A DNA stretch of 64,000 nt from Candidatus Daviesbacteria bacterium. GTDB taxonomy: Bacteria > Patescibacteriota > Microgenomatia > Daviesbacterales > UBA10151. Both the position numbers and the translations under genes were made by a program. The notes beneath the pieces are model-generated. The model was given only the letters and a program-made list of their open reading frames with translations, was not told the origin of the DNA and ran no database searches. The stretch covers positions 343,398-407,397 of the forward strand of contig CP066688.1 of the NCBI GenBank assembly GCA_016432425.1, written 5' to 3'. The first letter of the stretch is position 1. Every line of letters starts with the position of its first letter. Of this stretch, positions 26,710-57,261 are shown in pieces.

Positions 26710-26805
26710 AACTTCAAGTTATTGTAACAAAAAAATAATTTCCTGTATAGTTAGAAATAATTGATATACTTATTTACAGTTTCGCCATCTTGTTTGATTA
26801 TTTCT

Positions 26806-26844
26806 TGTGGATAAAATTGTGGATAAGATTCATTTTGTGGATAA
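26806..26844. promoter_or_regulatory. three perfect DnaA boxes (TGTGGATAA = TTATCCACA complement) upstream of dnaA
   Basis: tgtggataa at 26806-26814, 26818-26826, 26836-26844; followed by 9-bp-stem palindrome tgatccgtc-aaa-gacggatca at 26846-26866. Confidence 0.7.
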
Positions 26845-26882
26845 CTGATCCGTCAAAGACGGATCATGTCAAAGGATCTCGT

Positions 26883-28832: not shown

Positions 28833-29924
28833 ATGAAATTTTCCATTTTACAACAGGATTTATTGCCAGCCCTGCAAGCAGTCTCCCGCTGTGTTAATCC
28901 TCATGCCAGTTTACCGGTTTTAGCCAATATTTATTTATCTGCCCAAGGGCAAGAGATTAGGTTGGCGGCCACTAATTTAGAAATCGGTATTTTTAAAACT
29001 TTTAAAGCAGAAATTATTGAGGAAGGGGAAATTACTGTGCCGGCCAGGATGTTTTTAGATTTAATCAGCTCTTTACCGGGGACAAAATTAGATTTTGAAA
29101 CCAGCCAGGATATTTTATTATTAAAAAGCGGTAAATTTAAAGCTCAAATTAATGGTTTATCAGCCAGCGAGTTCCCCGTCATTCCTTTACCTCAAGATCA
29201 TCAAATTGATTTTCCATCAGAGGTTTTTAGGACATCACAGTCAATTTTGTTTGCGGCAGCCACAGATGAGGGACGCCCTACCTTAACCGGTATTTTAGTT
29301 TTTACTAAAGGAGATAATTTAAACTTTGTGGCCACTGACGGTTTTCGCTTGGCTTTTAAAGAGGTCAAGTTAACAAAAACGCAGGAGTTTAAATTTTTAG
29401 TACCCAGGCGAACTTTTGAAGAAGTACTGCGCTTATTGGATGAGGAAGAAGTAGACAATCTAAAGGTGACCAGTTCCCCAAACCAGGTAGTCTTTGCTTT
29501 TAGCAAAACCATTCTTTCCTCCCGGTTGATAGAGGGCTCTTTTCCGGCCTGGGAAAAAATTATTCCAACGGAAATAAAGACTCGTTTAATTATTAATAAA
29601 GAAGAGTTGTTGAAAGCTTTAAAAATAGCCTCAGTTTTTGCCAAAAATGAAGCCAATATTATTAATTTGGATTTAAAAAAAGAGGGGTTGATAGTCAAAT
29701 CCGCTTCCCGTCAACTTGGTTCTCAGGAAATGGAAGTAGAGGGACAAATAGAAGGGGAGGAGTTGTTGGTAGCTTTTAATGCTAAATTTTTACTTGATGC
29801 CGTCAGCAACTTACCTACCAGCCAGGCTATGTTGGAATTTTCCGGGGAACTAACTCCCTGTCTGGCCAAACCAGTAGGCATGGAGGGATTGCAGTACGTG
29901 GTCATGCCGATGGGGAGAAGTTAA
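28833..29924 (+). CDS. dnaN: DNA polymerase III beta sliding clamp
   Basis: 363 aa, three-domain beta-clamp pattern, immediately downstream of dnaA. Confidence 0.9.
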   Translation: MKFSILQQDLLPALQAVSRCVNPHASLPVLANIYLSAQGQEIRLAATNLEIGIFKTFKAEIIEEGEITVPARMFLDLISSLPGTKLDFETSQDILLLKSGKFKAQINGLSASEFPVIPLPQDHQIDFPSEVFRTSQSILFAAATDEGRPTLTGILVFTKGDNLNFVATDGFRLAFKEVKLTKTQEFKFLVPRRTFEEVLRLLDEEEVDNLKVTSSPNQVVFAFSKTILSSRLIEGSFPAWEKIIPTEIKTRLIINKEELLKALKIASVFAKNEANIINLDLKKEGLIVKSASRQLGSQEMEVEGQIEGEELLVAFNAKFLLDAVSNLPTSQAMLEFSGELTPCLAKPVGMEGLQYVVMPMGRS

Positions 29925-30380: not shown

Positions 30381-32408
30381 TTATTTTACTAAAAGTTCCC
30401 GTGCAAATTGTTGATGCAAAGGTTTGCTGCGCTGGTAAGGATTATTGGGAATAGCGGGTTCACAGGCGGCTCCAATTCCCAAGCTTTGCTCTGGAAACTC
30501 TAAGTTTAAAAAATAAGTTATCGTCTCTGCATAATCTTCGCTAAGGTTATTAATTCCTCCAATGCAACTGTTCCCGTTTTGGGAATAACTAGTCAAATAA
30601 CCTTCTTGACTAATTACCGATTGCAACTCGTTTTTCTTAGCAGTTTGTGGGTAGCAGTTTTCTATAATATGGGAAAGTTCATGGATAAAGACCACCTTAA
30701 ATAACCCTTCTGAGTAAGGTTGTTTAGTAGAAGAGCTAACTCCACTCATAGTTAAAGAATTACAAGAAATTTGTTCATTAAATCCGCGATCTAGTCTTCT
30801 AATATTAATAATATTATGGTTGGGATTAACTAAGTTTAAAAATTTAGTGTTAGAGATACCCCACAACTTCTCCCAGGCCCATTTTAAGTAGTTGTAACCA
30901 AAAGCAGTATCCATGTTAATGCCGAAAGCGTTTAAAATGTCGTCATGTAATTTTTGTTGATCAGTACTAGGCGGAGGTGCGTTAACAGAAACAGGCCGAC
31001 AGTTTTGCAGGCTGTTCCATAAATCATCCCCATAGTTATATGGTCCGGCGCATCTAGTAGTACCGCTGGCTGTTTTTTCAGATGTACCATATTCCAAGCA
31101 ACCATAATATCCTTCTGCGACTCTGTTTATGATAGTCTGATCACTGGTCCAGGAAGGATTCCACTCAACAGCACCTAATTTACTTAAGATCAAACCAGCT
31201 GAGAGGATAATACTACCTCTGGGGTCACAAAAATCTGCCTGAGTAAGCTGGTCGACGGTTTTATTTAAAAAACTGGCCCCTTTTTCTACCCCGCTAGCAG
31301 AATAAGCTGCTGCCAGCCCCCAAGGTGGTTGAATTTGCATAATACCTAAAGCCCCGGTCGGGTTAATAGGACACTTCTCAGCTCCCAGAGTTGGCAGATC
31401 AGCATCAGCGACTTTGGTAACAGAAGGAGTTTCCACCCTGGCAATGGCTGCCAAAAGGGTTGATGGTACTGAAGTTAATGTTTCAGCTTCTTGGAAGTAA
31501 CTTAAAAGTAGTGGACTTTGATAACTTTCAGCTTGAGGGTTTCGATCTCCCCGATAAAACTGGCAAGAGTTAATATTGCCAATTCCGCCAGCTTCAGCTT
31601 TCTGATAAGGGGGGATGAAACTGCCGCTTTCTAAGATGTTAAAAATAAGCGGTCCTATAAAAATGACTGCCACCACAATTAAAACTGCCACCACAATGGG
31701 CCAACCTACACTGGCTACGGCTGCTCCTCCGGCCATCACTGCTCCCCTGGCTGCCCCCTGGGTTAACATGCCTCCTGCCCGGCCCGCTCCCCCCAGTCCC
31801 TGGAATAATCCTGACCCCACCCCCCGGACCAGGGAACCAGCACCTCTAAGGGTATTTTCTCCCAGCCGGCGGGTTAAAATTTGCCCATGAGAGGAAAAAT
31901 CTTTAAAACTAGAGGGTATTTCCCATTTGGGTCGGGGAATATTAGGTGGGGAGGGGGTTTGAGGAGGTGGCCCTCCCTCAGTAGGTGTTTTACTAATTTC
32001 CTGCTGGACTCTTTTTAAAGCAGCTTCTTCGACTTTCCCCTCTAGTTTATTAAGCCATTTGTTTAAATTGTCCTCTTTTTGGTCAGGATCACTTAACTTA
32101 TCCTTTAAAGCTGTTTCCAACTCTGTGGCTTGTTGTTCGTTTAAGACTGGGGGGGCAGCCGGGTTAATTAATCTTCTTAAATTTAAATCTACTTTTTTGT
32201 TGGCATACAATTTTTCTACCAGCTCATTATCTTCTTGATAAACCCGATAAGCAGGCAATAAATGGCGGACCAGGCGCAAGATAGGTTTTTTAGCAATAAA
32301 ATATCCTCTAATGACCACAAAATGGCGGTCCGGTTTTTCTTTGAATTGGTCAATGGCCCCTCGAGGCTCAAAAAGCAATCTAAAAATTCTGGCGTCTTGT
32401 TGGGCCAT
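30381..32408 (-). CDS. T4SS-associated cell-wall hydrolase: TM protein with lytic transglycosylase (SLT) domain and C-terminal HExxH metallopeptidase-like domain
   Basis: TM AVMAGGAAVASVGWPIVVAVLIVVAVIFIG; SLT-like AIARVETPS…ALGIMQIQPPWG; FIHELSHIIEN; adjacent to VirB4. Confidence 0.5.
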   Translation of the reverse strand: MAQQDARIFRLLFEPRGAIDQFKEKPDRHFVVIRGYFIAKKPILRLVRHLLPAYRVYQEDNELVEKLYANKKVDLNLRRLINPAAPPVLNEQQATELETALKDKLSDPDQKEDNLNKWLNKLEGKVEEAALKRVQQEISKTPTEGGPPPQTPSPPNIPRPKWEIPSSFKDFSSHGQILTRRLGENTLRGAGSLVRGVGSGLFQGLGGAGRAGGMLTQGAARGAVMAGGAAVASVGWPIVVAVLIVVAVIFIGPLIFNILESGSFIPPYQKAEAGGIGNINSCQFYRGDRNPQAESYQSPLLLSYFQEAETLTSVPSTLLAAIARVETPSVTKVADADLPTLGAEKCPINPTGALGIMQIQPPWGLAAAYSASGVEKGASFLNKTVDQLTQADFCDPRGSIILSAGLILSKLGAVEWNPSWTSDQTIINRVAEGYYGCLEYGTSEKTASGTTRCAGPYNYGDDLWNSLQNCRPVSVNAPPPSTDQQKLHDDILNAFGINMDTAFGYNYLKWAWEKLWGISNTKFLNLVNPNHNIINIRRLDRGFNEQISCNSLTMSGVSSSTKQPYSEGLFKVVFIHELSHIIENCYPQTAKKNELQSVISQEGYLTSYSQNGNSCIGGINNLSEDYAETITYFLNLEFPEQSLGIGAACEPAIPNNPYQRSKPLHQQFARELLVK

Positions 32409-32430
32409 GGCAGTAATTTGATTCTACACT

Positions 32431-34146
32431 TTAACCTTGCTGGCGAGCAAGGATCTCGGCCGGGTTGGAGGTAATTAACTGGTGTTCCTCGGGGGAGGCC
32501 ACTACCCTCATGGCCACATGAGTATTGCCGGCAAAAAAGAGCCCCTGGCCCACTCCGGCAGCCAGCAGCAGACGCTGTTCACCTTCTGATAGATAAAAGA
32601 CTTGGGCCACTTTTTCTATTGAAGCCGGGGCTTGTTTTAGTAGTACCTGGATGGAGGAGTTGGAGATAATTTCTTTGCCCCGGTCAGTCCCCAAAAAATC
32701 TTCCACATCCTGGGTAATGGTGGTCAGCCCCAAATAATATTTGCGGGCCCTTTTGGCCATATCGACCAAGAAATCAGCGCTATCTTGGTTTTGCATTAAA
32801 TACCAGGCCTCATCCACCACCAAAAGGCGTTTTTTGAGTTTAGAGCGCACTTTGGTCCAGATGTACTCCAAAATAATATACATGGCCAAAGGACGCAGTT
32901 GGTCAGGCAGGTCACGCAGGGAAAAGACAGTAAAAGAGTTGCTGATATCAATATTGGAGGGTTGAGAAAAAATACCTGCCAAGGATCCTTTGACAAAGCG
33001 TTCCAGCCGGGCAGAGAGACTGGTGGCAATAGCATCTTCCATACCCATTAAAACTTTGTATAAATCTTCCATTAGAGGGGCGGGGCGGTTTTGGGTTTTG
33101 GGGTCATCAGTAATACCAAAACTGGCATAAGTTTGTTTTAAGCTTCTGTCTAAGATGGCTGCCTCTTGGGGGGAGAGTTGCCCTAAAACCAGTTTTAAAA
33201 AGCCAGTCAAAGACAAAATTTTTCGTCCCAACTCATTTTCTCCTGGATCGCCACTTAAAGATAGGTCAAAAGGGTTGATTTTAACTGCTGAATTAACTGA
33301 AAAGTTTAGATATTCTCCGCCAATAGCTTTGCACAAATTTAAATATTCCTGCTCCGGGTCAATCACCAAAATTTCCGTGCCAAACATTAAAGAACGCAAG
33401 GCTTCCAGCTTAACAAAATACGACTTCCCTGCTCCGGATTTGGCAAAAACTACCGAGTTGGCATTTTCCAAAGAAAAACGGTCGAATAAAATTAATGAAT
33501 CATTGTGTTCGTTAATCCCATACATAATGCCACTGTTGGAAGTTAACTCTGAGGAGGCAAAAGGAAACATGGAAGCCAGTGAAGTAGTGTCCATATTATG
33601 AGTAAAATTAAGCAAATCTTCCCCTAAAGGGAGGCTGGATTTAAAACCTGCCTCCATTTGCAGGGTGGTGGGTCTGGCCGTCATCGACAAAGAGGCCAGA
33701 GTAGATTCTACCAGTTTAGAGGTATTAGCTAACTCTTCTTTATTGTCCGTGGGCAGGGTGACATAAAGGGAATACTGGAAAAACCGCTCGGTGCCCCGCA
33801 CCAATTGATCTTGTAGGGCCCGGGCATCTTCTAAGGCCACTTCCACCGCCGGGTTAACTTGCTGCCCCCGTTCTAAGTCAGTTTGGATGGTGGCTTCCAT
33901 TTCAGCAATTTTCCTTTTTAGATCATTTAAGACTCCACTGGGCTGTTGTGGATAAATAAACATGGATAGATACAGCGAGTGGTCAAAAGAAATGACTGGT
34001 TCCAGCCAATTTAAGTCGACAAATCTGGGGTAAGCAGACACAAAATAGGTGCGATAAAAGGTTTGGTTAATCCGTAAATGGTTAAAATCCACCTCCATTT
34101 CCGCCGGGGCAATCAAATCAACTAAATTTAAATTATGGGGGTTCAT
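32431..34146 (-). CDS. type IV secretion ATPase VirB4/TrbE/PrgJ family (C-terminal ATPase portion)
   Basis: Walker A VVFAKSGAGKSYFVK, Walker B LLVVDEAWYLM, GLTTITQ; overall VirB4-like pattern. Confidence 0.75.
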   Translation of the reverse strand: MNPHNLNLVDLIAPAEMEVDFNHLRINQTFYRTYFVSAYPRFVDLNWLEPVISFDHSLYLSMFIYPQQPSGVLNDLKRKIAEMEATIQTDLERGQQVNPAVEVALEDARALQDQLVRGTERFFQYSLYVTLPTDNKEELANTSKLVESTLASLSMTARPTTLQMEAGFKSSLPLGEDLLNFTHNMDTTSLASMFPFASSELTSNSGIMYGINEHNDSLILFDRFSLENANSVVFAKSGAGKSYFVKLEALRSLMFGTEILVIDPEQEYLNLCKAIGGEYLNFSVNSAVKINPFDLSLSGDPGENELGRKILSLTGFLKLVLGQLSPQEAAILDRSLKQTYASFGITDDPKTQNRPAPLMEDLYKVLMGMEDAIATSLSARLERFVKGSLAGIFSQPSNIDISNSFTVFSLRDLPDQLRPLAMYIILEYIWTKVRSKLKKRLLVVDEAWYLMQNQDSADFLVDMAKRARKYYLGLTTITQDVEDFLGTDRGKEIISNSSIQVLLKQAPASIEKVAQVFYLSEGEQRLLLAAGVGQGLFFAGNTHVAMRVVASPEEHQLITSNPAEILARQQG

Positions 34147-34889
34147 ATATTATCTCCTAACTCTTCTACGACAAAAGGATGGGTTTTGGCCCGGGCCAAA
34201 TTGGGAAAAAAATTGCTGGTCGGAGTAATTGGAATGGGAGTTGGCTTTGGCTGGGTGGGAAAGGGAGTAGCAGCTACTTGGGGAGCTGCTAATTTAACAG
34301 GGGGAACCTGCACCGGAGTAACTATTTTAGTACTAATAGTTTGGTTATAGATATTAAAAAATAATTTGACCAGCTGGGCATTTTTCAACTGCTCTGCCTT
34401 GATGCCGGCCCGGGAGAGCTGGCGGATAATTTGATCGCGCCGGGGTAAAATAATGGCCTTAATTTTAGGCAACTGAGATAGGGAGTTAGGTTTTAAAGAC
34501 AGCCCCAGTTCCAGCGAGGAAACATTGATGGCAATATAGAAATTTTTATCCAACACTTCGTTTTCTTTGATGGTTTGTTGAATAAAATTGCGGTAGCGGG
34601 TCATCATAGCAGAAAGCAGAGGATTGTTTTGTAGTTTTTGGGCGCTATCCAATAAAGTTAAATATGAGCTAATATCTAACTTGATTGACTGGATAATAAT
34701 TTGGATGGGAAAAGATAAAGAGTTGAGCAGTTGGGCAAAGCTGTCGACAATGGCCAGTTGTTCTTTTTGGGAAAGCAGCCCAAAATTGACTGCCCCCACT
34801 TTTAATACTAAGGTGGCACCGCCGTCTTTTAAAAGTAGTAAGTCGCTGTTGATATCTTGAACTGTTAAGCTATTTTGAGTTTTGGTCAT
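34143..34889 (-). CDS. hypothetical protein, possibly detached N-terminal domain of VirB4 (ATGA overlap with downstream ATPase), Pro/Thr-rich tail
   Basis: 248 aa + 571 aa roughly equals typical VirB4 length; 4-nt overlap; no motif of its own. Confidence 0.3.
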   Translation of the reverse strand: MTKTQNSLTVQDINSDLLLLKDGGATLVLKVGAVNFGLLSQKEQLAIVDSFAQLLNSLSFPIQIIIQSIKLDISSYLTLLDSAQKLQNNPLLSAMMTRYRNFIQQTIKENEVLDKNFYIAINVSSLELGLSLKPNSLSQLPKIKAIILPRRDQIIRQLSRAGIKAEQLKNAQLVKLFFNIYNQTISTKIVTPVQVPPVKLAAPQVAATPFPTQPKPTPIPITPTSNFFPNLARAKTHPFVVEELGDNI

Positions 34890-35743
34890 ATTAATTTTTT
34901 AGCTGATACCGTTAAAGGTGATAAGGTCGTACCTTTTAAATTAATCTGAATTTTGTCAAAGGATAAACTCTCTTTTTCCAACTCAATCAGATAAGTACCA
35001 TTGGGTAGGGGGGTGGAACCGGAAAACTGGCCCAATTTGTTAGTTTTTAAGGCTCGAACAGGCAGCCCTGTTTTGTCGTAAATAATCACTACCACTCCTT
35101 CTAAATAATTGCCGGCTGCATCGGTAATAATGCCATTGATCACATTTGGTATGGTGGTCAGCACTAACTGGCCGGGTTTGATTTTACTAGCCGGGACCAC
35201 TTTAATAGGTTCATTTTTAACCATTGGTGGAAGATCCACTGGAGTTGGAGTAGGAGTGGGGGTAACTGGTGGAGTCGGGGTCACAACTGGCGCAGCAGTA
35301 GGAGTGGGCTGAGCAGGGATGATAGTAGCAGTTTGGGTGGGAGGGGTGATTTTGGCAATCACCGGTGGAGTAGCTGTTTCTAGGCTGGCCACCACTTGAG
35401 AAATAATGGACCCGCGCTGGCTAAAAAGGGCCGTTTGCTCCCAGGAATGGTCATTTTTGGACCATACCCACTGAGTAGGAGAATAAACTGCTTTTAAGAA
35501 AGCTTTCACCCAATAATCCAGCGGGCGGTCGGCAATGGGCATAAAAGCCAGCGCGACCCCCACCAGAGCAAAAAAGGTAATCAGCGGCCAGGCTAAAAAT
35601 CCCAGAATAGGAAGCAAAAAGACAAAGATTAAATAAGCTGTTCCCATTCCGAAAGATAAGTATAAAAACTGTTTTAAAGTCATGTCCCCCACTAATCTAA
35701 ATTCAAAAGCAGTGACGTTTTGTGGGATAGGATGGGCTTCCAT
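34886..35743 (-). CDS. VirB3/PrgI-like 2-TM protein fused to Pro/Thr linker and CnaB/carboxypeptidase-regulatory-like beta domain
   Basis: N-terminal YLSFGMGTAYLIFVFLLPILGFLAWPLITFFALVGVALAF; linker TPTPPVTPTPTPTPV; C-terminal GIITDAAGNYLEGVVVIIYDKTGLPV…GTYLIEL. Confidence 0.4.
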   Translation of the reverse strand: MEAHPIPQNVTAFEFRLVGDMTLKQFLYLSFGMGTAYLIFVFLLPILGFLAWPLITFFALVGVALAFMPIADRPLDYWVKAFLKAVYSPTQWVWSKNDHSWEQTALFSQRGSIISQVVASLETATPPVIAKITPPTQTATIIPAQPTPTAAPVVTPTPPVTPTPTPTPVDLPPMVKNEPIKVVPASKIKPGQLVLTTIPNVINGIITDAAGNYLEGVVVIIYDKTGLPVRALKTNKLGQFSGSTPLPNGTYLIELEKESLSFDKIQINLKGTTLSPLTVSAKKLI

Positions 35744-35919
35744 TTAAGAAGGATCATATAGTGTGAAAAAAATGTATGCAAGGGTTTAAAAGTGGATCAT
35801 TTTGGAGCAAACCTATATGAATTTCCTCCTTGCCAATACTAAATATTGAGTGTACATTAAAGGCGTGGTGTATCGTCCTGAGTACTTAAGGGAAATCGAA
35901 GTATCGAAGGGGAAGATAC

Positions 35920-36058
35920 AAAAAAGGGAATGGGGTGCCTCGCCTCGCTGAGCGGGCGAAGCGGGAAATCCCCAACTGTGCCGCAACGGTGATTCTGAAA
36001 AGATAAGTCCGGAGACCGACCACTCCGCCAGCTGGCGGATCAATCCCGAGCCAGGAAA
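35920..36058 (-). ncRNA. candidate structured GC-rich RNA with terminator-like 3' end (unclassified)
   Basis: GC-rich island in AT-rich DNA; perfect palindrome ccgccagctggcgg; nested hairpins cgcc-tcgctgagcg-ggcg enclosed by gggg…cccc followed on minus strand by UUUUUU (forward A-run 35920-35925). Confidence 0.3.
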
Positions 36059-36961
36059 ATGATTACTCAAGAACAAGAATGTATACAATTTATCGCTAAT
36101 TGGAGGAAAGCATCTCCCCAAAATCGTCCTCAAATAGTCCAAGAAATCGCTTCGTGGCATCGGGAAAGTAATCGCCAAATTGCCAAAGGAATAGATTTTT
36201 ATTGGTACGAGGTGGATGAGGAAGGTGATTTTGTCTCCCCAACCAATGGTGAAAAAATCACCGCCAGTATTAATCAAGAGTGCGGTTTGGGACAGATAGA
36301 AACTGGGGTAGTAAAGGAGTTGCAAAGACAAAAAAAATTAGGCGAGGAGCTTTTTATCTGGATTAGTCCGCCATACCCAAATACCTATGTTGATTTAAAA
36401 TTGACTATTACCAATCGGGTAGTTGATAAAGGGAGGGAGTGTTTTGCCAATAGGGCCATCCTTTTTGACTGTGATGAAACGCAAAGCTTGCAGTTGGCTC
36501 GAAAGGTTGCTGAAATCAGTAAAAACCGGCCACTTTTGTCCTCACTGGAGGAAATTAGACGAACTCCGCTAGTGTTAGATCGCAGTTTAGATTGGATAGA
36601 AGTTTTAACCAAAATAACTGGTGATAGTAAGTTGGGAGAAATTATTAACAGTGGAGAAGACCAACAAGCTAAAACTGAAGCAGTGAAGCAGGCTAGTCAG
36701 TTTTATGATGATTTATTGGGGGAGCCAACAATAGAATTGAAGGTAGAAAATATAAATTTTGCCCGCGATTATGGCTTGGGGGATAGTTTAAGCTCTTGTC
36801 CGGTGATTATGGGTGGTTTAACAGCCCCAGAAAACTCTTTTTCTTGCCCCAAATGTCACAGACCAATTCCTTATGGTAGAGGAATGACAGTTTGCCCTAA
36901 TAAAGACTCTTTTGGTAATAGATGTGGAGCTAAAAAAGAAGACTACGGAAATTGTAATTAA
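36059..36961 (+). CDS. hypothetical protein with C-terminal Cys-rich zinc-ribbon-like tail
   Basis: …SCPVIMGG…CPKCHRPIPYGRGMTVCPNKDSFGNRCGAKKEDYGNCN; no other motif. Confidence 0.35.
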   Translation: MITQEQECIQFIANWRKASPQNRPQIVQEIASWHRESNRQIAKGIDFYWYEVDEEGDFVSPTNGEKITASINQECGLGQIETGVVKELQRQKKLGEELFIWISPPYPNTYVDLKLTITNRVVDKGRECFANRAILFDCDETQSLQLARKVAEISKNRPLLSSLEEIRRTPLVLDRSLDWIEVLTKITGDSKLGEIINSGEDQQAKTEAVKQASQFYDDLLGEPTIELKVENINFARDYGLGDSLSSCPVIMGGLTAPENSFSCPKCHRPIPYGRGMTVCPNKDSFGNRCGAKKEDYGNCN

Positions 36962-36997: not shown

Positions 36998-38839
36998 ATG
37001 AGCGAAACTGATCCTTTGATAGAGCAGGAGTTGGGTTCAACAGTGATGGTAGCTGAGAAACCAGAGACACTTAAATCTCAACCTCTTAACCCTTATTCCA
37101 AGCAGCATATTTTTCCAGAAGAATATGCAGAAGAATATGCAAAAGATCATTTTTTGCCTCCTCCTGAGACAAAAGAGAATCATCAATTTGACTTTACAGA
37201 AATGGTGAGAAAGCTAATAACTCAAAAGACTTATCCTATTAGAGGAATTTCTCCTGACTTTAATCCCGCAAAAGCGAGCTTTTATAAAATTGAGCGTCAT
37301 GGTAGTGGCGGATTGGGAGCTAATCTGGTTAATGATCAAGGGGAGACAGTGGCGGTGATGCCTTTTTGGACTGAGGAATACAGTGACCAAGAAAAATACA
37401 TCATTAAACCAGATGGTCCTTATGATGTTCATTATGATCAAAGTGGCCGAGAAGTGATGCGGCTTCTGCGCCAAGAGGGAGGGGCAGGAGTAGTACCTGA
37501 TCCAGAGCCAGCAGATGTGGTGAGCTCAGATGCCGCGAGGGCCTGGTTAGAAAGACAGCTGAGATCTTATGAAGGGTTAGGGAGTGAAATAGATATGTCG
37601 ATAGTGAGCAGTTTGCTGTCTACTATTTCCGGAAGAATTCCTGATGCTTTGGGGGTGAAGAGGGAGTTATTAATCAGAACCCGGGCTCGTATTTTTTATC
37701 ATAATGCTGCTATTAGAGCCAGATTCAGATTAGGGGACTTAATGGAGGTATTTGGACAATTGCAGCTGCCAGAACACCAAGAGATTTTGGGTACCCCCGG
37801 CGTTAGGGAATCGATAGTAGCTTTAATAAACAATGATGGTGAGTTTTTTAGATTAGGTGGTGCAGCAGCTGATGCAGAGAGGACTAATATTAAAAACAAT
37901 CTTCAGGTTGGATTGGGTCTGGCTCCAGATAGAGCAATTTTAGCTTTGGAACTCGCCGAGAAATTTGCCCAAATGACTGGTGAAGCCAGTTACTATGATG
38001 GTATCAGGGATTTAACTGGTAATTGGCAACATTTTGAGGTCGGGGCAACCGGAGAAACAGACTATCAGGCTTATGCTGATTATTTAGCCGAGCATTGGGA
38101 CGATATTGACCAGGCTAATTCCTTACAAGGGCAAGGTTCAGCTAACATGCGAAGGGCCTTTTTTTATCCAGTTTTTTTACAAAAACCTGCTACTGATAAT
38201 AGGGGTCGGGCTGAATATTTAAGGAGATATGCTTATTTGTGGGTAAATTCAGCCGTACATTTTCGCAATCCTGCTTTCAATGCAGAAATGAATTTGTTAG
38301 ATTTCGCCGATCATATTGACAGTCAGTGGATAAAATGGATTGTTTGGGCCGGGAAAGTCTCTAAAGCTCATGGTAATGCCGGCCAATTAAATGAAAAAGG
38401 AGCAGAAAGTATTTTAAATGTACCCTTAATCGAGCCTAATAACTTAAAACAAGACACAAGTGAACAAACTATCAATGGAGTGATGGATAACTACAAAAAG
38501 GCTATTGCCGTTTTTGGCCACCTTAATTATCCTGAAGAAGTTCAGCGGTCCATGACCCATCTATTAAGAGGGGTGATGGAATATGTATCCGAAAGACATA
38601 TTAATCAAGCCCGGGCAGAAGGTTTTATTACTTGGTTGGGTATCAATCAAGATCAAGTTTTTAGTGTCTTAAGATGGGCTGCTAAAATTGGTGCCGTTAC
38701 TTATGTCCAAGCAGAAGGTTTGCGCCATCAACTAGATTTGACTTTATTTAGAGTGGCGGCTGAGGCTGCGGCGCCACATTTGGGCCAAGGTATCTGGGCT
38801 GGAATCAGGGGGTTTTGGGGCGCCATTACTGGTAAATAA
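36998..38839 (+). CDS. hypothetical soluble protein (613 aa)
   Basis: Long ORF, no TM, no recognised domain. Confidence 0.35.
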   Translation: MSETDPLIEQELGSTVMVAEKPETLKSQPLNPYSKQHIFPEEYAEEYAKDHFLPPPETKENHQFDFTEMVRKLITQKTYPIRGISPDFNPAKASFYKIERHGSGGLGANLVNDQGETVAVMPFWTEEYSDQEKYIIKPDGPYDVHYDQSGREVMRLLRQEGGAGVVPDPEPADVVSSDAARAWLERQLRSYEGLGSEIDMSIVSSLLSTISGRIPDALGVKRELLIRTRARIFYHNAAIRARFRLGDLMEVFGQLQLPEHQEILGTPGVRESIVALINNDGEFFRLGGAAADAERTNIKNNLQVGLGLAPDRAILALELAEKFAQMTGEASYYDGIRDLTGNWQHFEVGATGETDYQAYADYLAEHWDDIDQANSLQGQGSANMRRAFFYPVFLQKPATDNRGRAEYLRRYAYLWVNSAVHFRNPAFNAEMNLLDFADHIDSQWIKWIVWAGKVSKAHGNAGQLNEKGAESILNVPLIEPNNLKQDTSEQTINGVMDNYKKAIAVFGHLNYPEEVQRSMTHLLRGVMEYVSERHINQARAEGFITWLGINQDQVFSVLRWAAKIGAVTYVQAEGLRHQLDLTLFRVAAEAAAPHLGQGIWAGIRGFWGAITGK

Positions 38840-38845: not shown

Positions 38846-40522
38846 TTATCGGCGTGGCGGTTGAGATAATTGGCCCAGTCTATTTGTAAAGGAAGTTAAC
38901 CAGCGCGGCGCTCCAGGAGCGGTTGCTCTTTCTTCTAATAATCTAGATCCCGCTGCAGCTGCTCCTCTGCCAAAACTAGGTGCTGCTGCTGTCACCACAG
39001 TTTGCCCCCGGCCCAATCCTGCCATGGCCTCTTGGGGAATACCGGCAATATCTTTAACCCCAAAAGCGTTTTTGACCATATCAGGGATGGCTGGAGTGCC
39101 TAAAATTAAGCCGTAGGCAATAATTAATCTCAACAACTCGATACTTAAACCGCCAAAAAGTGGGGGTGAGGCTACCCAAGACTTTGAGTCAGTTTGCAAG
39201 ATCATACCGGCAAACAAAAAAGCGGCAAAAACAGCCGGGAAAACTAAAGCATTAGCTAAAATTGTTTTCCACCATAAATTTAAAGAGCCTCCCTTGCCGG
39301 GAATAGAGGAATATAAAATAATAAATGGTGAGAGGATAGTGGAAACCAGCAGGGCAATGTAGGCCCCGATTAATTTCCACAGCAACCTAAAAAATTGGAT
39401 CAATAAAGCAATCACTAAAATTAAAGGGACAATCAATCCCACAATGCCGGTGAAGGCTGCTCCCGCTCCTGCTCCCAGGGCAGTGCCTGCTCCCAAACCC
39501 AGAAGTGTACCTGCTCCCGGAAAAACAATAGTGCCCACAATGGTTCCGATAATGGCCGGCAACCCAATGGCTAAAGCTGCTCCTCCCCTTTCACCGCCTA
39601 CAGTTGAAGATAGGGTCCCAAAAAGCCCTTTAGTGACATCATGGATATTTTCCGGAATCCTAAAAGTTGACACAAACATATTGAAAACATTGGAACTATT
39701 GGCTAAATCCTGAACCTGTAAAACATTAGGGGTGGCCAAAAAAATCTGGGCTACTGCTTGGACCCCGACAAAAGAAGTGTCAATTAACAGAGCAGAGAAA
39801 AAATAACTAAAGGTCACTAAAACTATACCTATGACCAGTCCAGGCAAGGCAGCCTGGGCGGAAATAACAGTTTGAGGATTAATTTTAGAGCGGAACATGA
39901 TCATAAAACCAATGGCAATAAAAACAAAAGTAAAAATAAAATAGGCCAAGTTTCTGCTAATTAGCCAAAGTTGCCTAACTGGTTCAATAATGCCCGCTCC
40001 TGACCCGCCCACCTGGGCATAGGCAGGTTTGGCTAAAAAATTATTTCCTACAGAGGCTAAGTATTGGACAGTAGAAGTAGGTGGGTTGGTATACATGGCC
40101 ACAAAAATATTAGTCACTCCTGCTAAAGCCCCCCCACTTTGGCCAGGACTGTAAAGGACAATTTTGCGCTCTTTGCCAAGGGTAATTCCCAAACATTCGT
40201 CCACCGGGCTCATCCCGGCCAGTTCACAAAACATGCTGTGTTCTAAATTTAAAATAGTGTAATTAGAATGTTGGGGAGCCTTATAATTTTCCTGGGTAAC
40301 TGATTTAGGTGTAGGCTTAGGAGAAGGGGAAGGAGAGGTTTGGATACCAGTATTATCTCCTGGAGCTTGAACGGATTTGGAGGTATTAACTGGATCATTA
40401 GTGATTTCAGCCTGGACATTAGTAGCCAGTAGTAAACAGTAAACAGTAAACAGTAAAAATAAAATTATGGCTTTACTGACAACTGACAACTGACGGCTGA
40501 AAGCTGAAATTAGGGCAGACAT
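38846..40522 (-). CDS. VirB6/TrbL-like polytopic membrane protein with signal peptide and Pro/Ser-rich N-terminal region
   Basis: Multiple Gly/Ala-rich TM helices (…GAGTLLGLGAGTALGAGAGAAFTGIVGLIVPLILVIALLIQFF…); located in T4SS cluster. Confidence 0.5.
   Translation of the reverse strand: MSALISAFSRQLSVVSKAIILFLLFTVYCLLLATNVQAEITNDPVNTSKSVQAPGDNTGIQTSPSPSPKPTPKSVTQENYKAPQHSNYTILNLEHSMFCELAGMSPVDECLGITLGKERKIVLYSPGQSGGALAGVTNIFVAMYTNPPTSTVQYLASVGNNFLAKPAYAQVGGSGAGIIEPVRQLWLISRNLAYFIFTFVFIAIGFMIMFRSKINPQTVISAQAALPGLVIGIVLVTFSYFFSALLIDTSFVGVQAVAQIFLATPNVLQVQDLANSSNVFNMFVSTFRIPENIHDVTKGLFGTLSSTVGGERGGAALAIGLPAIIGTIVGTIVFPGAGTLLGLGAGTALGAGAGAAFTGIVGLIVPLILVIALLIQFFRLLWKLIGAYIALLVSTILSPFIILYSSIPGKGGSLNLWWKTILANALVFPAVFAAFLFAGMILQTDSKSWVASPPLFGGLSIELLRLIIAYGLILGTPAIPDMVKNAFGVKDIAGIPQEAMAGLGRGQTVVTAAAPSFGRGAAAAGSRLLEERATAPGAPRWLTSFTNRLGQLSQPPRR
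40431..40508. repeat. two heptanucleotide repeat tracts inside 5' coding region of VirB6-like gene
   Basis: agtaaac x3 plus agtaaaa (40431-40458); tactgac/aactgac/aactgac/ggctgaa/agctgaa (40474-40508). Confidence 0.7.
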
Positions 40523-40569
40523 AATTTAAGATTAAATCAAAGTAGCTTATTTATCAACAGTGTGGCCAG

Positions 40570-41142
40570 TCACTGTTCAGTAACTGGTTTAACTCCCTCC
40601 GGGAAATTAGCCTGCTGGTAGGTTTCCTCATAATCTTTAACCTTTTCGACTCCTGGAAGAGTTGGCAAATCTGTGCCATAAACCCCAGTGGGTCCCCTTA
40701 AAAAGCTCTTTAGTTGTTCTATGGGGGTACCTTGTAACTTGACATCTGGAGGGGTTTGAGTTTGCTGAATAGTTTCTGATTGGACAAAAAACTTTTCTAT
40801 ATTAAGGGTTTGCCCGGCTTTACTTACTAATTCTGAGAAAAAATTACCTATTCCACTCAAAATCTGGCTTACTAAATCCTGATTAGGTAATTTATCTTTA
40901 ACTGCCTCCGGGGCCAATAAATTCTGGTTCAAATTATAAACAGCCTGTTCCTCAGAATTTATGGTAATAGCCTGAATAGGAGTAGCCAGTAGTAAGTAGC
41001 CAACAGTAAACAGTAAAAATATAATTGTTATCTTATTAACAATTAATTTAGGGGCAGACATAGTTTTAAAATTTACAGGTTCCGTTATAAACACTACTTT
41101 TAAGTGAAGCAATATTTCCCCCACCAACTCTGGCTGGTCCAC
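40570..41142 (-). CDS. small secreted/membrane protein with N-terminus paralogous to VirB6-like protein
   Basis: ITIIFLLFTVGYLLLATPIQAI vs IILFLLFTVYCLLLATNVQAEI; underlying DNA also heptamer-periodic (agtagcc agtagta agtagcc aacagta aacagta). Confidence 0.35.
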   Translation of the reverse strand: MDQPELVGEILLHLKVVFITEPVNFKTMSAPKLIVNKITIIFLLFTVGYLLLATPIQAITINSEEQAVYNLNQNLLAPEAVKDKLPNQDLVSQILSGIGNFFSELVSKAGQTLNIEKFFVQSETIQQTQTPPDVKLQGTPIEQLKSFLRGPTGVYGTDLPTLPGVEKVKDYEETYQQANFPEGVKPVTEQ

Positions 41143-42997
41143 GGGTACTAAAAGTATATTTACTTCCTGGCGGCATCTTTCTATTTACAAGAAGATTATC
41201 ATAAGGATTTTTCAGTTCTCCATAACGACCAATAGCATAACCTACTACTTTACCTCGGTTATCATATCCCACCTGGATAATTACAGCTCCTCTGTAGAAG
41301 GTATCAAGTGTTAAATCTCCTTTATTAATGACCACCCCACTTCCCACCATGAATCTTTGATCAGGAGCAAGATTTAATGATGAAGATTCAAATTCCACCA
41401 TACCGTAATCTCTGGGATAAGTAGAGACTGGATTGGTGGGTTGCTCTGAAAGTTCGACACTAGCACGGTCTATATTACCGGCGGCTAAAGAGGCTGTCAT
41501 AATATTATGAGGTCCAGCATCAAAAGTGGCGCCTACATAATCCTTATTAGGATTCATACAATAGAAGCTTATTTCAGTTGTTTTTGCCACTGGAGAATTA
41601 TTTCTGGTCAGAAATTGAGGAGTAAAACTTAAATATTGTCTCCAAAAATTAGGCATAGTTAATTCCCACACTGCATGGATACGGTTTTCTCGGCAGTTAC
41701 GTTCAGTAGGATTATTAATACAATCCCATGAAGGTCCTTCAAAAATCTGTACGTCTTTAAATACTACTTTAGTAGAGGTAATCACACCTGTAGGTTTTTC
41801 TAAAGTAGGGGTAATTGGTGTATAAGTAGGTGAATATATTTGGTTCAACGGTCTTTGTCGTAGATAATCTTGAACTGCCCAATTACCATCACTTAACTGC
41901 CACCATAAATAACCATCAGTATAAACCGGACCTCCGGTAACAAAAACTGAGCTACCCTCTTTTTCGCAGCGTTGCACTCTACTGTTGGTGGAAGGTTGTT
42001 CCCTAATATTTAAACAGCTGCCGGTCCCGGAAATGACGGCTTGATCTTTAAGAGTAAAAGCAGGGGTGGGAGTAGGTTGAGGAATTTCGGTAGGGGTAGG
42101 GATGACGGTAGGAACAACTAATGGGGAAATATCTGGGGGTGGGTTTTTGGTTAAATAAACCGGGTTAAAATCAATATAATTAATGGTACCCTCACAATCC
42201 TTAGAGTTTCTACTTTCCTCCCTGCACCAACTGGTATTAGCTACCCTAGGTTCTTCTCCTGATTTAGCGAGGATACCATTGCGGTCACCGGGTAAACTTT
42301 TGTGTGCCCAGCCGGCAATGGGTTGGGATTCATCAAAAGGAACTGGTTGGTCACCTTTGTACAAGGCTACATCTACATGAGGGCCGCTATTAAAATGGTC
42401 GGGGCTATGTTCACAAGAAGTAAAACCCAATTCGCTGGTGTAGGCGACTTTGTCTCCTGGTTGTACTTTGATTTCACCCAAATGTTCATATTCGCTGCTG
42501 TAACCATTAGGATGGTCAATTCTGACCATACTGTGCCGTGGGTCGTTGGGATTATTTTCCTTCCCCACCCAAGCTACTACTCCCGGGGCCATTGGCCTGA
42601 TAGGTATAGTGCGGATGATTAATGTTTTTTCTGGCTCACATAAGCCGGCAGCCACGGAAAAGTCTAAATGCCCGCTATGGGCCCCACCGCCTCCGCCGGT
42701 AAAATAACCCCGGCCCCAAAAAGGGAACTGCCAGCCCAAGTTTTGTGCCCCTTGGTCTGGCTGACTGACTATTGGTGAGCTGTCTAATGGCTGATCAGGT
42801 GAAGAAGGTGTGGTCCCACAACCGACAAGAGCCAAACCAGCCAGTGGTAATAGTAAATTTAAATTGGAGTTTGAGGGGTGGTTAGAATCTAAAAAATAAT
42901 TAACGCGAAGTTCGTCTGCCAGAGATGGTCCAATTACTCCTTTACCCCAATCTCTGGAGCCATCATCCAAATAAGTGTAGCCTAATTCTTTACTCAT
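41066..42997 (-). CDS. lipoprotein with M23/LytM-like peptidase domain (HxH degenerated to HVD) plus additional beta-rich domains
   Basis: Lipobox LALVGCG; GAHSGHLDFSVAAG; RIDHPNGYSSEYEHLGEIKVQPGDKV; GPHVDVALYK in place of GPHLHFE. Confidence 0.45.
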   Translation of the reverse strand: MSKELGYTYLDDGSRDWGKGVIGPSLADELRVNYFLDSNHPSNSNLNLLLPLAGLALVGCGTTPSSPDQPLDSSPIVSQPDQGAQNLGWQFPFWGRGYFTGGGGGAHSGHLDFSVAAGLCEPEKTLIIRTIPIRPMAPGVVAWVGKENNPNDPRHSMVRIDHPNGYSSEYEHLGEIKVQPGDKVAYTSELGFTSCEHSPDHFNSGPHVDVALYKGDQPVPFDESQPIAGWAHKSLPGDRNGILAKSGEEPRVANTSWCREESRNSKDCEGTINYIDFNPVYLTKNPPPDISPLVVPTVIPTPTEIPQPTPTPAFTLKDQAVISGTGSCLNIREQPSTNSRVQRCEKEGSSVFVTGGPVYTDGYLWWQLSDGNWAVQDYLRQRPLNQIYSPTYTPITPTLEKPTGVITSTKVVFKDVQIFEGPSWDCINNPTERNCRENRIHAVWELTMPNFWRQYLSFTPQFLTRNNSPVAKTTEISFYCMNPNKDYVGATFDAGPHNIMTASLAAGNIDRASVELSEQPTNPVSTYPRDYGMVEFESSSLNLAPDQRFMVGSGVVINKGDLTLDTFYRGAVIIQVGYDNRGKVVGYAIGRYGELKNPYDNLLVNRKMPPGSKYTFSTRGPARVGGGNIASLKSSVYNGTCKF

Positions 42998-43009
42998 TGT
43001 TTATTTAAA

Positions 43010-43342
43010 TTAAGGACACCAATTAGTTCCGCCAACATTACACAAAGTTTTAATGTCAAAAGTTTTTAAGCCTTCTAAGCCGGTAAAGGCCGCAACCAGC
43101 TGCAATACCAGCCAGGCAATGACCAAAAACAGTATTCCTAAAAGGGCCCAGGTGACTGTCATGGAGGCTGACTGGATGGCTTTGGCATCTCCCCCGGAAG
43201 TTAAGTACCTAATTCCTGCCCACACTAATACCATCACCAAAGCTACAAAAGCCGCGGCTACTGACAAATTAATGATTCTGCCAAAAAGCGCTTCCAGTTG
43301 GGTCAGGCCGGCTGCATCGCTGACTACATTGGCGGGGGTCAT
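43010..43342 (-). CDS. T4SS pilin-like protein (VirB2/TrbC-like, 2 TM), paralog 1
   Basis: Two hydrophobic helices flanking SGGDAKAIQSASMTVTWA motif. Confidence 0.5.
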   Translation of the reverse strand: MTPANVVSDAAGLTQLEALFGRIINLSVAAAFVALVMVLVWAGIRYLTSGGDAKAIQSASMTVTWALLGILFLVIAWLVLQLVAAFTGLEGLKTFDIKTLCNVGGTNWCP

Positions 43343-43379
43343 AATTTAAAATTATCACTCGGATAAGCCCAGGTCAAGC

Positions 43380-43805
43380 TCAGCGTGATAAAGAGGGGGT
43401 GGGGTTTTGTGGTGAAGGAATAGTGAATTCTCTTAACAGATCAACTCCTAAGAATCCTCCGGCCAGTTGGACTATGGCAAAAGCTACTGCCAAAATGGCC
43501 AGCCCCACTAGGGCATGGATAATTCTACCTCTGGCATTGCCAATGGCATCTTTATTACCCCCGGATAAAATCCACTCCACTGCCCCCCAGACTAACATCA
43601 CTAAGGCAATAATTAAAGCAATAATAAAAATTAGCCTAATTCCGGCATTTAAAAAATCAGAGATATTAGCAAAACCTACGTCAGGTTTTTTGATTTGGAT
43701 GGTGGTATCTGCGGCCCACACTCCCACCGGATTTAAAAGTGCTGTTGCGGAGGCGGTTAAGATAGATAGTTTTTTCATTTCTAATTTAATAGTATGCAAC
43801 CCCAA
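43380..43805 (-). CDS. T4SS pilin-like protein, paralog 2 (signal peptide + 2 TM)
   Basis: MKKLSILTASATALL signal; WILSGGNKDAIGNARGRIIHA motif. Confidence 0.5.
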   Translation of the reverse strand: MGLHTIKLEMKKLSILTASATALLNPVGVWAADTTIQIKKPDVGFANISDFLNAGIRLIFIIALIIALVMLVWGAVEWILSGGNKDAIGNARGRIIHALVGLAILAVAFAIVQLAGGFLGVDLLREFTIPSPQNPTPSLSR

Positions 43806-43813
43806 TTAGTTTG

Positions 43814-44149
43814 TCAAGTTTTAAAGAAAGTAAATCCGGTAAAGATTCCCACTAGGTTTAAAATAGCAAAAGTAATACCCAAAAGAATAATGCCGATAAT
43901 AGCATGAGTAATTCTACCTCTGGCATTGCCAATGGCGTCTTTATTGCCGCCTGACATAATCCACTCAAAAGCTCCCCATACCAGCATAAAAACAAAAATA
44001 ACAGCTGCGATTTCATAAATTAAAATTATCAAGTTGCTTAAAAATAAGCTAATTCCGCCGGCTCCGGTCGGGTCTTTTTCTACAAAAGGCTGCAAGGGAA
44101 GAGGGGGAGTAATTTTACCAAAGACATCTTCTACGGCTGCCAGTTTCAT
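43814..44149 (-). CDS. T4SS pilin-like protein, paralog 3
   Basis: WIMSGGNKDAIGNARGRITHA; ~85% nt identity to paralog 2 across motif region. Confidence 0.5.
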   Translation of the reverse strand: MKLAAVEDVFGKITPPLPLQPFVEKDPTGAGGISLFLSNLIILIYEIAAVIFVFMLVWGAFEWIMSGGNKDAIGNARGRITHAIIGIILLGITFAILNLVGIFTGFTFFKT

Positions 44150-44469
44150 TGGCCTCCTTTAATAATTTGGAAATTGGGAATATCAAATAAAGCAGACAAA
44201 ACAAACTGTAAAATTAAAAAGGCCATCATTAAGATTATAAACCCAATCATAGCATGGGTCATCATCCCCCGGCCGGAATTCAATGCTTCTTTGTCTGATC
44301 CGGCAGTTAAAAACTTAAAAGCCCCAAAGATAAAATAAAATACTACCAGCCCTGCCGCAATGGAAAAGGTGGGAGCGACTAACCGGTCAACGCCTTGGCC
44401 CAGCGAGGAAATTTCTCCAAAAGCAAACTCATCTTTTAATTTCACTTCAGCAATTAAATTATTTATCAT
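44146..44469 (-). CDS. T4SS pilin-like protein, paralog 4
   Basis: FLTAGSDKEALNSGRGMMTHA flanked by two TM helices. Confidence 0.5.
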   Translation of the reverse strand: MINNLIAEVKLKDEFAFGEISSLGQGVDRLVAPTFSIAAGLVVFYFIFGAFKFLTAGSDKEALNSGRGMMTHAMIGFIILMMAFLILQFVLSALFDIPNFQIIKGGQ

Positions 44470-44789
44470 ATTGGTATGACTACTTTGCTATTTGGTTGCA
44501 AAATTTCCTTGGCAAATTGGGCGACAGCGAAGGCCAGGGCAATCATAATCAAACCAACGATGGCCCAAATAATTCTGGATCTGGCTTGAGCCAATTTTTG
44601 CTTATCCCCACCGGCCGCAATGTATTGAAAAGCAGCCCAGACAATCCAAAAAAAAGCTAAAAAAGCCGCCAAATAAAAGGTCATGTTCAACAGCCCGGAG
44701 ATAACATCTCCCAAATTATTAAATTTGCCTGGACCGGTTCCCCCAACCGGAGATGTGTCCCAAATTTTTGGTAAATCCTTAAATTCCAT
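44466..44789 (-). CDS. T4SS pilin-like protein, paralog 5
   Basis: YIAAGGDKQKLAQARSRIIWA flanked by two TM helices. Confidence 0.5.
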   Translation of the reverse strand: MEFKDLPKIWDTSPVGGTGPGKFNNLGDVISGLLNMTFYLAAFLAFFWIVWAAFQYIAAGGDKQKLAQARSRIIWAIVGLIMIALAFAVAQFAKEILQPNSKVVIPI

Positions 44790-44791
44790 AA

Positions 44792-45913
44792 TTATACTTC
44801 AGGTAGTATTCCTAGTATATCAACTCCGATAATTTGCATAAAGAGGACGGAAAAGACGACAAATAAAATACCAATAATAGCACTGGCAAAACGGTCATGG
44901 CCGGCTTTTAACCTTTCCGGGCTGCCGGCAGAGGTGATCATCTCCAGTACCCCAATTAACATCAGCAAAAAGGCAACCCCGCCCCCAATACCCAGGCTAA
45001 AACGGAAAAGATCTGTAATTAAAGCTAAAGGTTTAGTGTGGACACAACCAATGGCGGTAGCTACACCCTCTCCACTGTCACAAGCAATGCCGGATGAAGA
45101 AGTACAACCAGGAGTGCCGGGAGTACAAGGAGGGGGAATGGAAGAAGAAAAAGTATGACCCTTCTTATCAGTGGTTATTACTAAATTGGCGGTAGTAAAA
45201 ATATTTTTATTGTCTGGAGTTAAGATTTGAGCTTGGATATTGTATGATCCAGCCGCTAAATCAGCTACTCGATTGGAGATGTTAATACTAGAAGTACCTG
45301 AATTATCAGTTGAGCCTTGTCCAATTGGTCTCCCTTCTAAATTAGTAATCTTCAATTGAATAAAAGCTTTTTCTATCGGACTCCCATCGTTTTTTTTCAA
45401 AGTAGTATTTGCTGTAAAATTTTCTCCTGCTTTACCGCTAGAAGGGTTAATCGATAAAGTTGATTGATAATCAGATTGGGCTGGCTGAACAGTAAATTTG
45501 ATGGTATGACTGGTTTTTTGTAGTTTCCAACTACAAAAAGCTCTATTACCTAAGACGTCAATATTGCATGACTCTTTGTATACTCTGGCAAAGACTTCAT
45601 AGTTACCAGTTGTTTGGGGATCTATTCCATAACTACCCTCAGGATTCCTTGCTAAAAGAGAATCATAACTGCGGCTATCTGTATAACATTGGCTATCGGC
45701 TCTAGAGCCAGTAAATATTAAATCAGCGGCATCCTTTTTAAAATAAATAACTAAACATGTCCCAACATCAATTCCGTCATAAGAAATAAGCAAGTTATCT
45801 TGGGCAGTAGGAGAAGCAGGAGAGAGAGTTATAGAAAGAGAGGCTGAATAAATCTCCAATGGTATTAAGAGAGATATTAAAAGAATACTTAAAAAAGTAA
45901 CTATTTTGGGCAT
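44792..45913 (-). CDS. secreted Ser/Thr-rich protein with C-terminal pilin-like 2-TM domain (candidate tip/adhesin pilin)
   Basis: Signal peptide; ~280-aa extracellular region; C-terminal MITSAGSPERLKAGHDRFASAIIG between two TM helices. Confidence 0.45.
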   Translation of the reverse strand: MPKIVTFLSILLISLLIPLEIYSASLSITLSPASPTAQDNLLISYDGIDVGTCLVIYFKKDAADLIFTGSRADSQCYTDSRSYDSLLARNPEGSYGIDPQTTGNYEVFARVYKESCNIDVLGNRAFCSWKLQKTSHTIKFTVQPAQSDYQSTLSINPSSGKAGENFTANTTLKKNDGSPIEKAFIQLKITNLEGRPIGQGSTDNSGTSSINISNRVADLAAGSYNIQAQILTPDNKNIFTTANLVITTDKKGHTFSSSIPPPCTPGTPGCTSSSGIACDSGEGVATAIGCVHTKPLALITDLFRFSLGIGGGVAFLLMLIGVLEMITSAGSPERLKAGHDRFASAIIGILFVVFSVLFMQIIGVDILGILPEV

Positions 45914-56677: not shown

Positions 56678-56678
56678 G

Positions 56679-56765: not shown

Positions 56766-56791
56766 CAAAGTGTTGTATAATAAACATAGCT

Positions 56792-57187: not shown

Positions 57188-57261
57188 TAGGTTCCAACAT
57201 AGTCAACCAGGCGCCGCCACTTTACACTTGCCTCAGAAAACTTTAAACTATAACCACTACT

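Follow-up and report, generated by a model that had tools for sequence, protein, structure and literature searches.

A putative cobalamin riboswitch upstream of an unannotated gene amid a type IV secretion-like cluster of Candidatus Daviesbacteria

Corrinoid riboswitches sense their ligand and repress expression through a kissing interaction between loops L5 and L13, which stabilizes helix P13 and promotes a hairpin at the ribosome-binding site (RBS) (PMC10327014). The L5 that pairs with L13 follows the consensus UCCCG, and kissing loops of the env8 type contain a bulge (PMC10327014). Here we describe a GC-rich intergenic element in a 64-kb window (the whole stretch of DNA analyzed, contig CP066688.1, positions 343,398 to 407,397) of Candidatus Daviesbacteria, which belongs to the ultrasmall bacteria of the candidate phyla radiation (CPR). 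In all likelihood, this element is a cobalamin (vitamin B12/corrinoid) riboswitch on the plus strand, in the 5′ leader of a gene that starts at position 36059 of the window and codes for a protein of 300 amino acids (aa); the mechanism that its sequence suggests is translational repression. The gene lies amid a cluster resembling those of type IV secretion systems (T4SSs). A 2024 review describes the predicted T4SS of Saccharibacteria as essential but of wholly unknown role, and it sees promise in riboswitches as inducible expression tools for these bacteria (PMC11665869). Our literature search, limited to open-access papers, found none that connects cobalamin riboswitches with either CPR bacteria or T4SS clusters.

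A cobalamin-family aptamer on the plus strand

The intergenic region (35744-36058) separates two divergent genes. One, on the minus strand, is PrgI-like, with a start codon ending at 35743; the other is the plus-strand open reading frame (ORF) of the 300-aa protein. The GC content is 0.48-0.60 over 35850-36050, compared with 0.32-0.38 in the flanks. Noticing this rise, the original prediction, a reading of the nucleotide sequence without database searches, had proposed a novel small RNA (sRNA) or riboswitch-like leader on the minus strand, upstream of the T4SS operon. An Rfam scan of both strands matched the plus strand only and returned nothing for the minus strand of the element. The match, at 35879..36038, was to RF00174, the cobalamin riboswitch family, and its 40.6 bits exceed the gathering score of 31.5; it covers the full model (1-189), with E = 9e-9 in the local scan and 8.4e-7 for the whole window, and RF00174 is the sole Rfam family other than tRNA and tmRNA in the 64 kb. 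Thus, a riboswitch-like structured leader was rightly suspected, while its strand, its target and its novelty were not: the RNA sits in the 5′ leader of the plus-strand gene at 36059 rather than in that of the operon starting at 35743 (minus), and a clean match to a known family, the outcome that had been named in advance as speaking against novelty, was obtained. The RNA itself is an ordinary member of a well-known family, found by a standard Rfam scan.

Loci encoding homologs of the 300-aa protein were drawn from metagenomes and GTDB genomes (L numbers below). A cobalamin-clan aptamer was present directly 5′ of the homologous gene in all 21 nonredundant loci with upstream DNA; L009 and L028, which have no upstream sequence, are not counted. 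The aptamer reached the gathering score in 15 loci (the window, L003, L006, L007, L008, L010, L011, L014, L016, L021, L022, L025, L029, L030, and L031) and fell just below it in L013, L020, L027, and L032 (E values of 8e-5 to 3e-3); it was weak in L026 (E = 0.83) and recognized by motif only in L012. The proteins at these 21 loci are only 23-64% identical, yet the aptamer core, L5, L13, and P13 are kept, with conserved leader features at a fixed orientation and distance relative to the plus-strand start codon. Two aptamer subtypes serve the one gene family, an RF00174-like subtype with P2 present (...GGAGACCGACCAC) and an RF01689-like subtype without P2 (...AGAAAACUAGCAAC); the RF01689 model scores higher than RF00174 for the leaders of L029, L027, L013, L020, and L032.

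Covariation analysis across the homologous leaders, which had been put forward as a check of the original prediction, showed that the helices covary. In a 17-sequence alignment, 95% of the cells for the P3, P4, P6, and P13 pairs are paired, compared with 28-64% when the partners are slid. Double changes occupy 27 cells where 5.8 are expected, and the covariation score was reached by none of 500 shuffles. Compensatory changes affect four of the five P4 pairs, and six pairs of P3, P4, and P6 taken together show double changes. P1 also covaries (GUGGU/ACCAC versus GGUUGU/GCAACC and AGAUUGU/GCAAUCU), as do the closing pairs of P2 among loci (GUAUC/GAUAC, GCGCC/GGUGC, GUACC/GGUAC, and AUCUC/GAGAU).

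Alignment of the homologous leaders corrected the 5′ boundary of the aptamer, which spans 35865..36023 on the plus strand; helix names are those of PMC10327014, transferred by way of the Rfam consensus. P1 (35865-69/36019-23; GUGGU/ACCAC, 5 bp) is followed by P2 (35870-74/35915-19), which bears a 40-nucleotide (nt) distal extension (35875..35914) that folds at -10 kcal/mol. Because of this insertion, P1 and P2 of the window were misplaced by Rfam. The GGGAA core (35926-30) lies within AAAAAAGGGAA at 35920-30, and its first two positions form P3 with 36016-17. P4 (35931-35/35970-74) and a 27-nt hairpin inserted in L4 (35938..35963) account for the nested hairpin cgcc-tcgctgagcg-ggcg enclosed by gggg...cccc, which had been pointed out before and is indeed present at 35932-35973. 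The L4 insertion occurs in the window, L003, and L012 and is absent from 14 other leaders. P5/L5 (35977-85, with L5, UGCCG, at 35979-83) and P6 (35987-89/36009-12) come next. A 15-nt mini-hairpin, UCU-GAAA-AGA (35990..36004), takes the place of the peripheral domain P7-P11; the Rfam alignment has just 5 nt here for 62 positions of the RF00174 model. The window element thus lacks the P7-P11 domain of class I (adenosylcobalamin [AdoCbl]-selective) cobalamin riboswitches; peripheral domains of 65-103 nt are found in L003, L008, L010, L011, L021, L025, and L012. The B12 box (36005-23) reads AAGUCCGGAGACCGACC at 36005-21, with AGYCMGGAGACC as the family consensus, and together with the GGGAA junction it forms invariant or near-invariant columns across 17 leaders. 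The word AAGTCCGG, to which the original prediction had drawn attention, is present at 36005-36012, though not as a relative of RNase P P4, since AAGUCCGG is the start of the B12 box.

A sigma-70-like promoter, TTGCCA-17-TACATT, is predicted at 35830..35858 on the plus strand by consensus match only. It would place the transcription start at about 35865, i.e., at the first base of P1, and pairs of the TTGACA/TAnATT type occur at the equivalent place in L006 and L007. Downstream of the aptamer, the perfect 14-nt palindrome ccgccagctggcgg reported earlier was found at 36025-36038. It is a linker hairpin that separates P1 from P13 in some leaders only, with no U-run after it. Linker hairpins of unrelated sequence occupy the same position in L008, L010, L011, L025, and L026; there is none in L003, L006, L007, L014, L016, L021, and L030.

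A module of the form CCUGAG...(U)CGAAGG(G/A)G recurs at differing peripheral positions of the aptamers, i.e., at the tip of P2 in the window (35876-35913) and L006 (643-688) and in an extension of P6 in L007 (638-664) and L022. A related UGAGCG..GCGAAG is seen in the L4 insertion of the window. By inspection, the module fits neither a k-turn nor a sarcin-ricin motif, and it may be a portable tertiary-contact module.

Expression platform and competing explanations

Nearly all leaders end in A-UCC-CG(N1-2)GC(C)A-GGA-N2-7-AUG. In the window, this signature corresponds to the expression-platform hairpin P13/L13 (36044..36056, plus strand), with UCC at 36044-46 facing GGA at 36054-56 and the loop CGAGCCA at 36047-53. 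The Shine-Dalgarno sequence AGGA (36053-56) ends 2 nt 5′ of the AUG at 36059. The P13 stem is kept in 17 of 19 tabulated leaders and also in L031 and L032. L5 is invariantly UGCCG and is complementary to the L13 sequence CG(N1-2)GC(C)A with a bulge of 1-2 nt; L13 varies only at that bulge. The leaders of L008, L012, and L026 carry additional self-contained hairpins between UCCCG and AGGA that leave the closing helix undisturbed.

These features suggest a translational OFF switch. When a corrinoid is bound, L5 (UGCCG) would kiss L13 (CG-A-GC-C-A), and the kissing loop would stabilize the weak 3-bp P13 (UCC/GGA), whose 3′ strand doubles as the Shine-Dalgarno core. The 300-aa protein would then be translated at low B12 levels, with its translation repressed at high levels. 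On its own, P13 is marginal (-1.7 kcal/mol, no better than shuffles), which fits the published model of a kissing loop that stabilizes the P13/RBS hairpin (PMC10327014). B12-dependent translational repression of the 300-aa gene is thus the likely mechanism, and the next gene, 36 nt downstream, is probably affected as well. A different scheme, in which UCCCG acts as an anti-Shine-Dalgarno sequence competing with the GGGAA core as its own antagonist, had been considered and was dropped once PMC10327014 clarified which loop is L5.

Two of the leaders with an AdoCbl-II-type aptamer upstream of the same gene family (L013:5880-5975 and L020:3615-3710) carry the same L13, CGAGCCA, closed by a UCUU/AAGA stem and followed by the terminator CCCCUC-GAAA-GAGGGG-U6 in place of the Shine-Dalgarno sequence. 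The exchange of the stem around an identical L13 amounts to covariation of P13 and indicates that L13 is conserved independently of the RBS. To judge from these leaders, one gene family is served by both translational and transcriptional platforms.

The minus-strand alternative, in which an intrinsic terminator ends an sRNA or leader that acts on the T4SS operon (35743, minus) or upstream of it, draws on the location of the region some 120-300 nt upstream of the minus-strand PrgI gene and on a GC-rich stem beside a plus-strand A-run (indeed present at 35920-35925), which would read as a stem plus U-run on the minus strand; that strand also folds about as well as the plus strand. No Rfam family matches it, however, and the terminator scan finds nothing at 35920, its only minus-strand site being a weak 5-bp one at 36027..36010, inside the B12 box. 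The A-run, instead of providing a terminator, belongs to the conserved J-region/core AAAAAGGGAA of the plus-strand aptamer. Moreover, the conserved features are all fixed in orientation and distance to the plus-strand start codon, and the riboswitch stays with the 300-aa gene where the T4SS operon is absent (L018 and L029) or otherwise oriented (L031). We regard a minus-strand regulator as extremely improbable. The minus-strand ORF at 35813..36331 had already been judged an artefact, and this judgment holds: the frame is open for only 48-75 aa in more distant homologous loci and overlaps the conserved plus-strand gene.

Two further alternatives accept a plus-strand aptamer and differ in what it does. 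Control might operate by transcription termination, with the palindrome at 36025-36038 as the terminator, instead of by occlusion of the RBS. The hairpin of the palindrome is stable, contributing about -11 of the -12.7 kcal/mol of the fold, and the related leaders of L013 and L020 carry a classical terminator after P13. The palindrome of the window, however, is not followed by a U-run (GGCGGAUCAAUCCC) and is not called by the terminator scan; it lies 5′ of P13/L13, whereas terminators in this family come after P13, and the closest homologs (L003, L006, and L007) lack it while keeping the arrangement of P13 and the Shine-Dalgarno sequence. This renders a terminator role of the palindrome very unlikely. 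We give equally little credence to loss of B12 binding in a decayed relic or to an activating (ON) corrinoid riboswitch. Such a reading could appeal to the modest score of 40.6 bits, the 5-bp P1, the large insertions in P2 and L4 and the missing peripheral domain, and activating corrinoid riboswitches do exist (PMC10327014). Against a relic stands the conservation of the core, L5, L13, and P13, with compensatory stem changes, across the 21 loci, which indicates purifying selection on a working switch. As for activation, the ON switch that has been described uses P13 as an antiterminator, whereas here P13 contains the Shine-Dalgarno sequence, so that its stabilization can only repress.

Several observations count against a B12-responsive translational switch. 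The overall folding energy is no better than that of shuffled sequences on either strand (z = -1.22 on the plus strand and -1.58 on the minus strand), and stability alone would thus not have singled out the element. The minimum-free-energy fold pairs the 5′ strand of P1 with L13, pointing to possible alternative structures, and in the Rfam alignment P1/P2 of the window has many noncanonical pairs, resolved only by re-registering P1 to 35865-69 with the help of the homologs. The translational leaders show no variation in the L5/L13 pairing or in the P13 stem and hence no covariation within this group. A role of the regulated gene in B12 acquisition or sparing is argued only by analogy with other B12 regulons. 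By the family model and by its conservation in homologous loci, the element nevertheless lies far beyond chance.

The genes predicted to be regulated and the surrounding cluster

The gene at 36059..36961 (plus strand; HYW45_01910) codes for a 300-aa protein with a PAS-like core, a WISPPYP motif and a C-terminal C4 zinc ribbon, the last resembling the zinc fingers of eL43 and Fpg by sequence profile. No Pfam, NCBIfam, or PHROG family was found for it. A full HMMER scan collected 454 representatives at 50% identity, 140 of them with E < 1e-30 and all about 300 aa long; a profile search of a word-indexed database added just two new members. Invariant residues of the family include E36, W101, S103, R167, C263, C266, C279, and C289. 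Inspection of the sequence, with no prediction tool, revealed no obvious signal peptide or transmembrane segment, and the protein showed no similarity in sequence or fold to the known families of B12 regulons, i.e., transporters, B12-independent isozymes and corrinoid salvage enzymes. In the past, riboswitch regulons have served as pointers to transporters and enzymes that handle the sensed ligand. By analogy, the 300-aa protein probably acts in B12 acquisition, in salvage or in a B12-sparing process.

The next gene (36998..38839, plus strand) codes for a 613-aa protein. The 36-nt gap that separates it from the 300-aa gene contains no promoter-like or terminator-like site, so that the two genes are probably cotranscribed. 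Only four homologs of the 613-aa protein were found, its AF2 model is unusable (pLDDT of 44), and a PDB profile search gave nothing meaningful. Its positional equivalents in L006, L008, L011, L013, L022, L023, L026, and L027 are 600-1456 aa long and mostly without detectable similarity between loci; these large proteins share an N-terminal '...NMAE...' start and acidic/Pro-rich N termini. As positional orthologs they evolve fast, and they may act as T4SS-related effectors or surface proteins. In L009, downstream of the 252-aa homolog P0009, a group I intron (RF00028, 76 bits; positions 1223-1496, plus strand) separates an ORF of 127 aa from one of 609/646 aa. The intron may split the large variable gene found after the riboswitch-controlled gene in this locus.

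Both genes are flanked by T4SS-like genes. The divergent operon (30381..35743, minus strand), which codes for a 675-aa protein, a VirB4-like ATPase, a TraC-like protein and the PrgI-like protein, provides context only and is not riboswitch controlled. The other half of the cluster (38846..45913, minus strand) codes for a conserved 558-aa protein, an M23 peptidase protein and T4SS pilin paralogues. Family matches of the flanking genes were to PrgI (1.3e-7), TraG P-loop/AAA_10 (5e-25), T4SS_pilin and Peptidase_M23; genes for a VirB4-type ATPase, a VirB3/PrgI-like protein, pilins and a cell wall hydrolase thus occur together, as expected of a T4SS cluster. The 675-aa gene (30381-32408, minus strand) is conserved in four loci (cluster c6) and has no Pfam family, with a weak match to a PHROG tail fibre (E = 1.4e-4). 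It occupies a place where a coupling protein or a surface component might be expected.

The gene order is kept in at least 13 loci, with the genes for the 675-aa protein, VirB4, the TraC-like protein and PrgI reading leftward, the riboswitch, the 300-aa gene and the gene of the large protein reading rightward, and the genes for the 558-aa protein, the M23 peptidase and the pilins again reading leftward. Toxin-antitoxin and AAA/DUF4143 genes are sometimes inserted in the rightward segment. dnaA (26790-28205) and dnaN (28833-29924), both on the plus strand, adjoin the cluster, which indicates that it is chromosomal rather than carried by a mobile element and that it lies close to the likely replication origin. 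In L018 and L029, the 300-aa gene lies among housekeeping genes (PGK, RpiB, TIM, and glutaredoxin), and in L031 it is otherwise oriented relative to PrgI; all three keep the B12 leader, so that the gene is linked more tightly to the riboswitch than to the T4SS genes.

Pairs of Phd/PIN-like toxin-antitoxin genes and genes for proteins like those of 23S rRNA intervening sequences recur beside the unit of riboswitch and gene (L010:3721-4343, L013, L020, L030, and L011:6943-7653; L010:2289-2594, L021, L022, L030, L016, and L031:2260-2637). They sit in one of two places, the interval from PrgI to the riboswitch or the downstream side of the 300-aa gene, which suggests that the locus is a local hotspot for small selfish modules. 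Two of the metagenome-assembled genomes, those of L010 (CAYQAW010000024.1) and L013 (CAYMUB010000027.1), are labelled 'uncultured Gammaproteobacteria' and carry a CPR-type cluster with a VirB4 about 76% identical to that of the window. These bins are probably mislabelled or contaminated. Elsewhere, the window holds ordinary housekeeping content, including a tmRNA gene (50816-51181, plus strand; 123 bits), a GAF-histidine kinase gene (51921-53078), a cluster of six tRNA genes (56587-60141), and dnaG and rpoD (60237-63141).

What is new, as far as the sequences tell, is the gene association: the riboswitch marks a large, widespread and unannotated CPR protein family as B12 responsive, usually amid a T4SS-like cluster. 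Since the 300-aa gene is usually found in the center of such a cluster, next to the gene of a hypervariable protein of 600-1450 aa, a shortage of B12 may turn on a T4SS-linked module. It is conceivable, if on balance unlikely, that the 300-aa family represents an unrecognized B12-responsive CPR function in which this module, made up of an adaptor and a secreted or surface effector, would serve to obtain corrinoids or other goods from hosts. If true, this would link a CPR T4SS to a physiological cue for the first time. Used as a functional label, the riboswitch yields a concrete hypothesis on B12 limitation and a T4SS-linked module in cofactor-auxotrophic episymbionts. It also provides a natural, compact, putative translational riboswitch from a CPR genome, about 195 nt from P1 to the AUG.

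Comparison with described systems

Like other members of RF00174 (clan CL00101, which also holds AdoCbl-II, RF01689), the window element has the GGGAA core, the B12 box, P1-P6 and an L5 at the canonical position, and it lies in cis in a 5′ leader. It differs from the family by L5, which reads UGCCG instead of the consensus UCCCG, by the 15-nt mini-hairpin in place of P7-P11, and by the insertions of 40 nt in P2 and 27 nt in L4. On the side of the secretion genes, PrgI, VirB4/TraG P-loop, T4SS pilin and M23 hydrolase genes in the flanks are shared with Gram-positive-type and CPR T4SS clusters. Unlike the T4SSs of conjugative elements, the cluster of the window is chromosomal, beside dnaA and dnaN.

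Close parallels to the proposed mechanism are the translational riboswitches env8HyCbl and Escherichia coli btuB (PMC10327014), whose logic would be the same, with L5-L13 kissing stabilizing P13 and occluding the RBS. The window element also shares with env8 the absence of a peripheral domain and, in its putative kissing loop, the bulge (PMC10327014). In contrast to env8HyCbl and btuB, its predicted P13 has only 3 bp, with the Shine-Dalgarno sequence itself as the 3′ strand. It differs from them, too, in the gene that it is predicted to regulate, which codes for neither a transporter nor a known B12-related enzyme.

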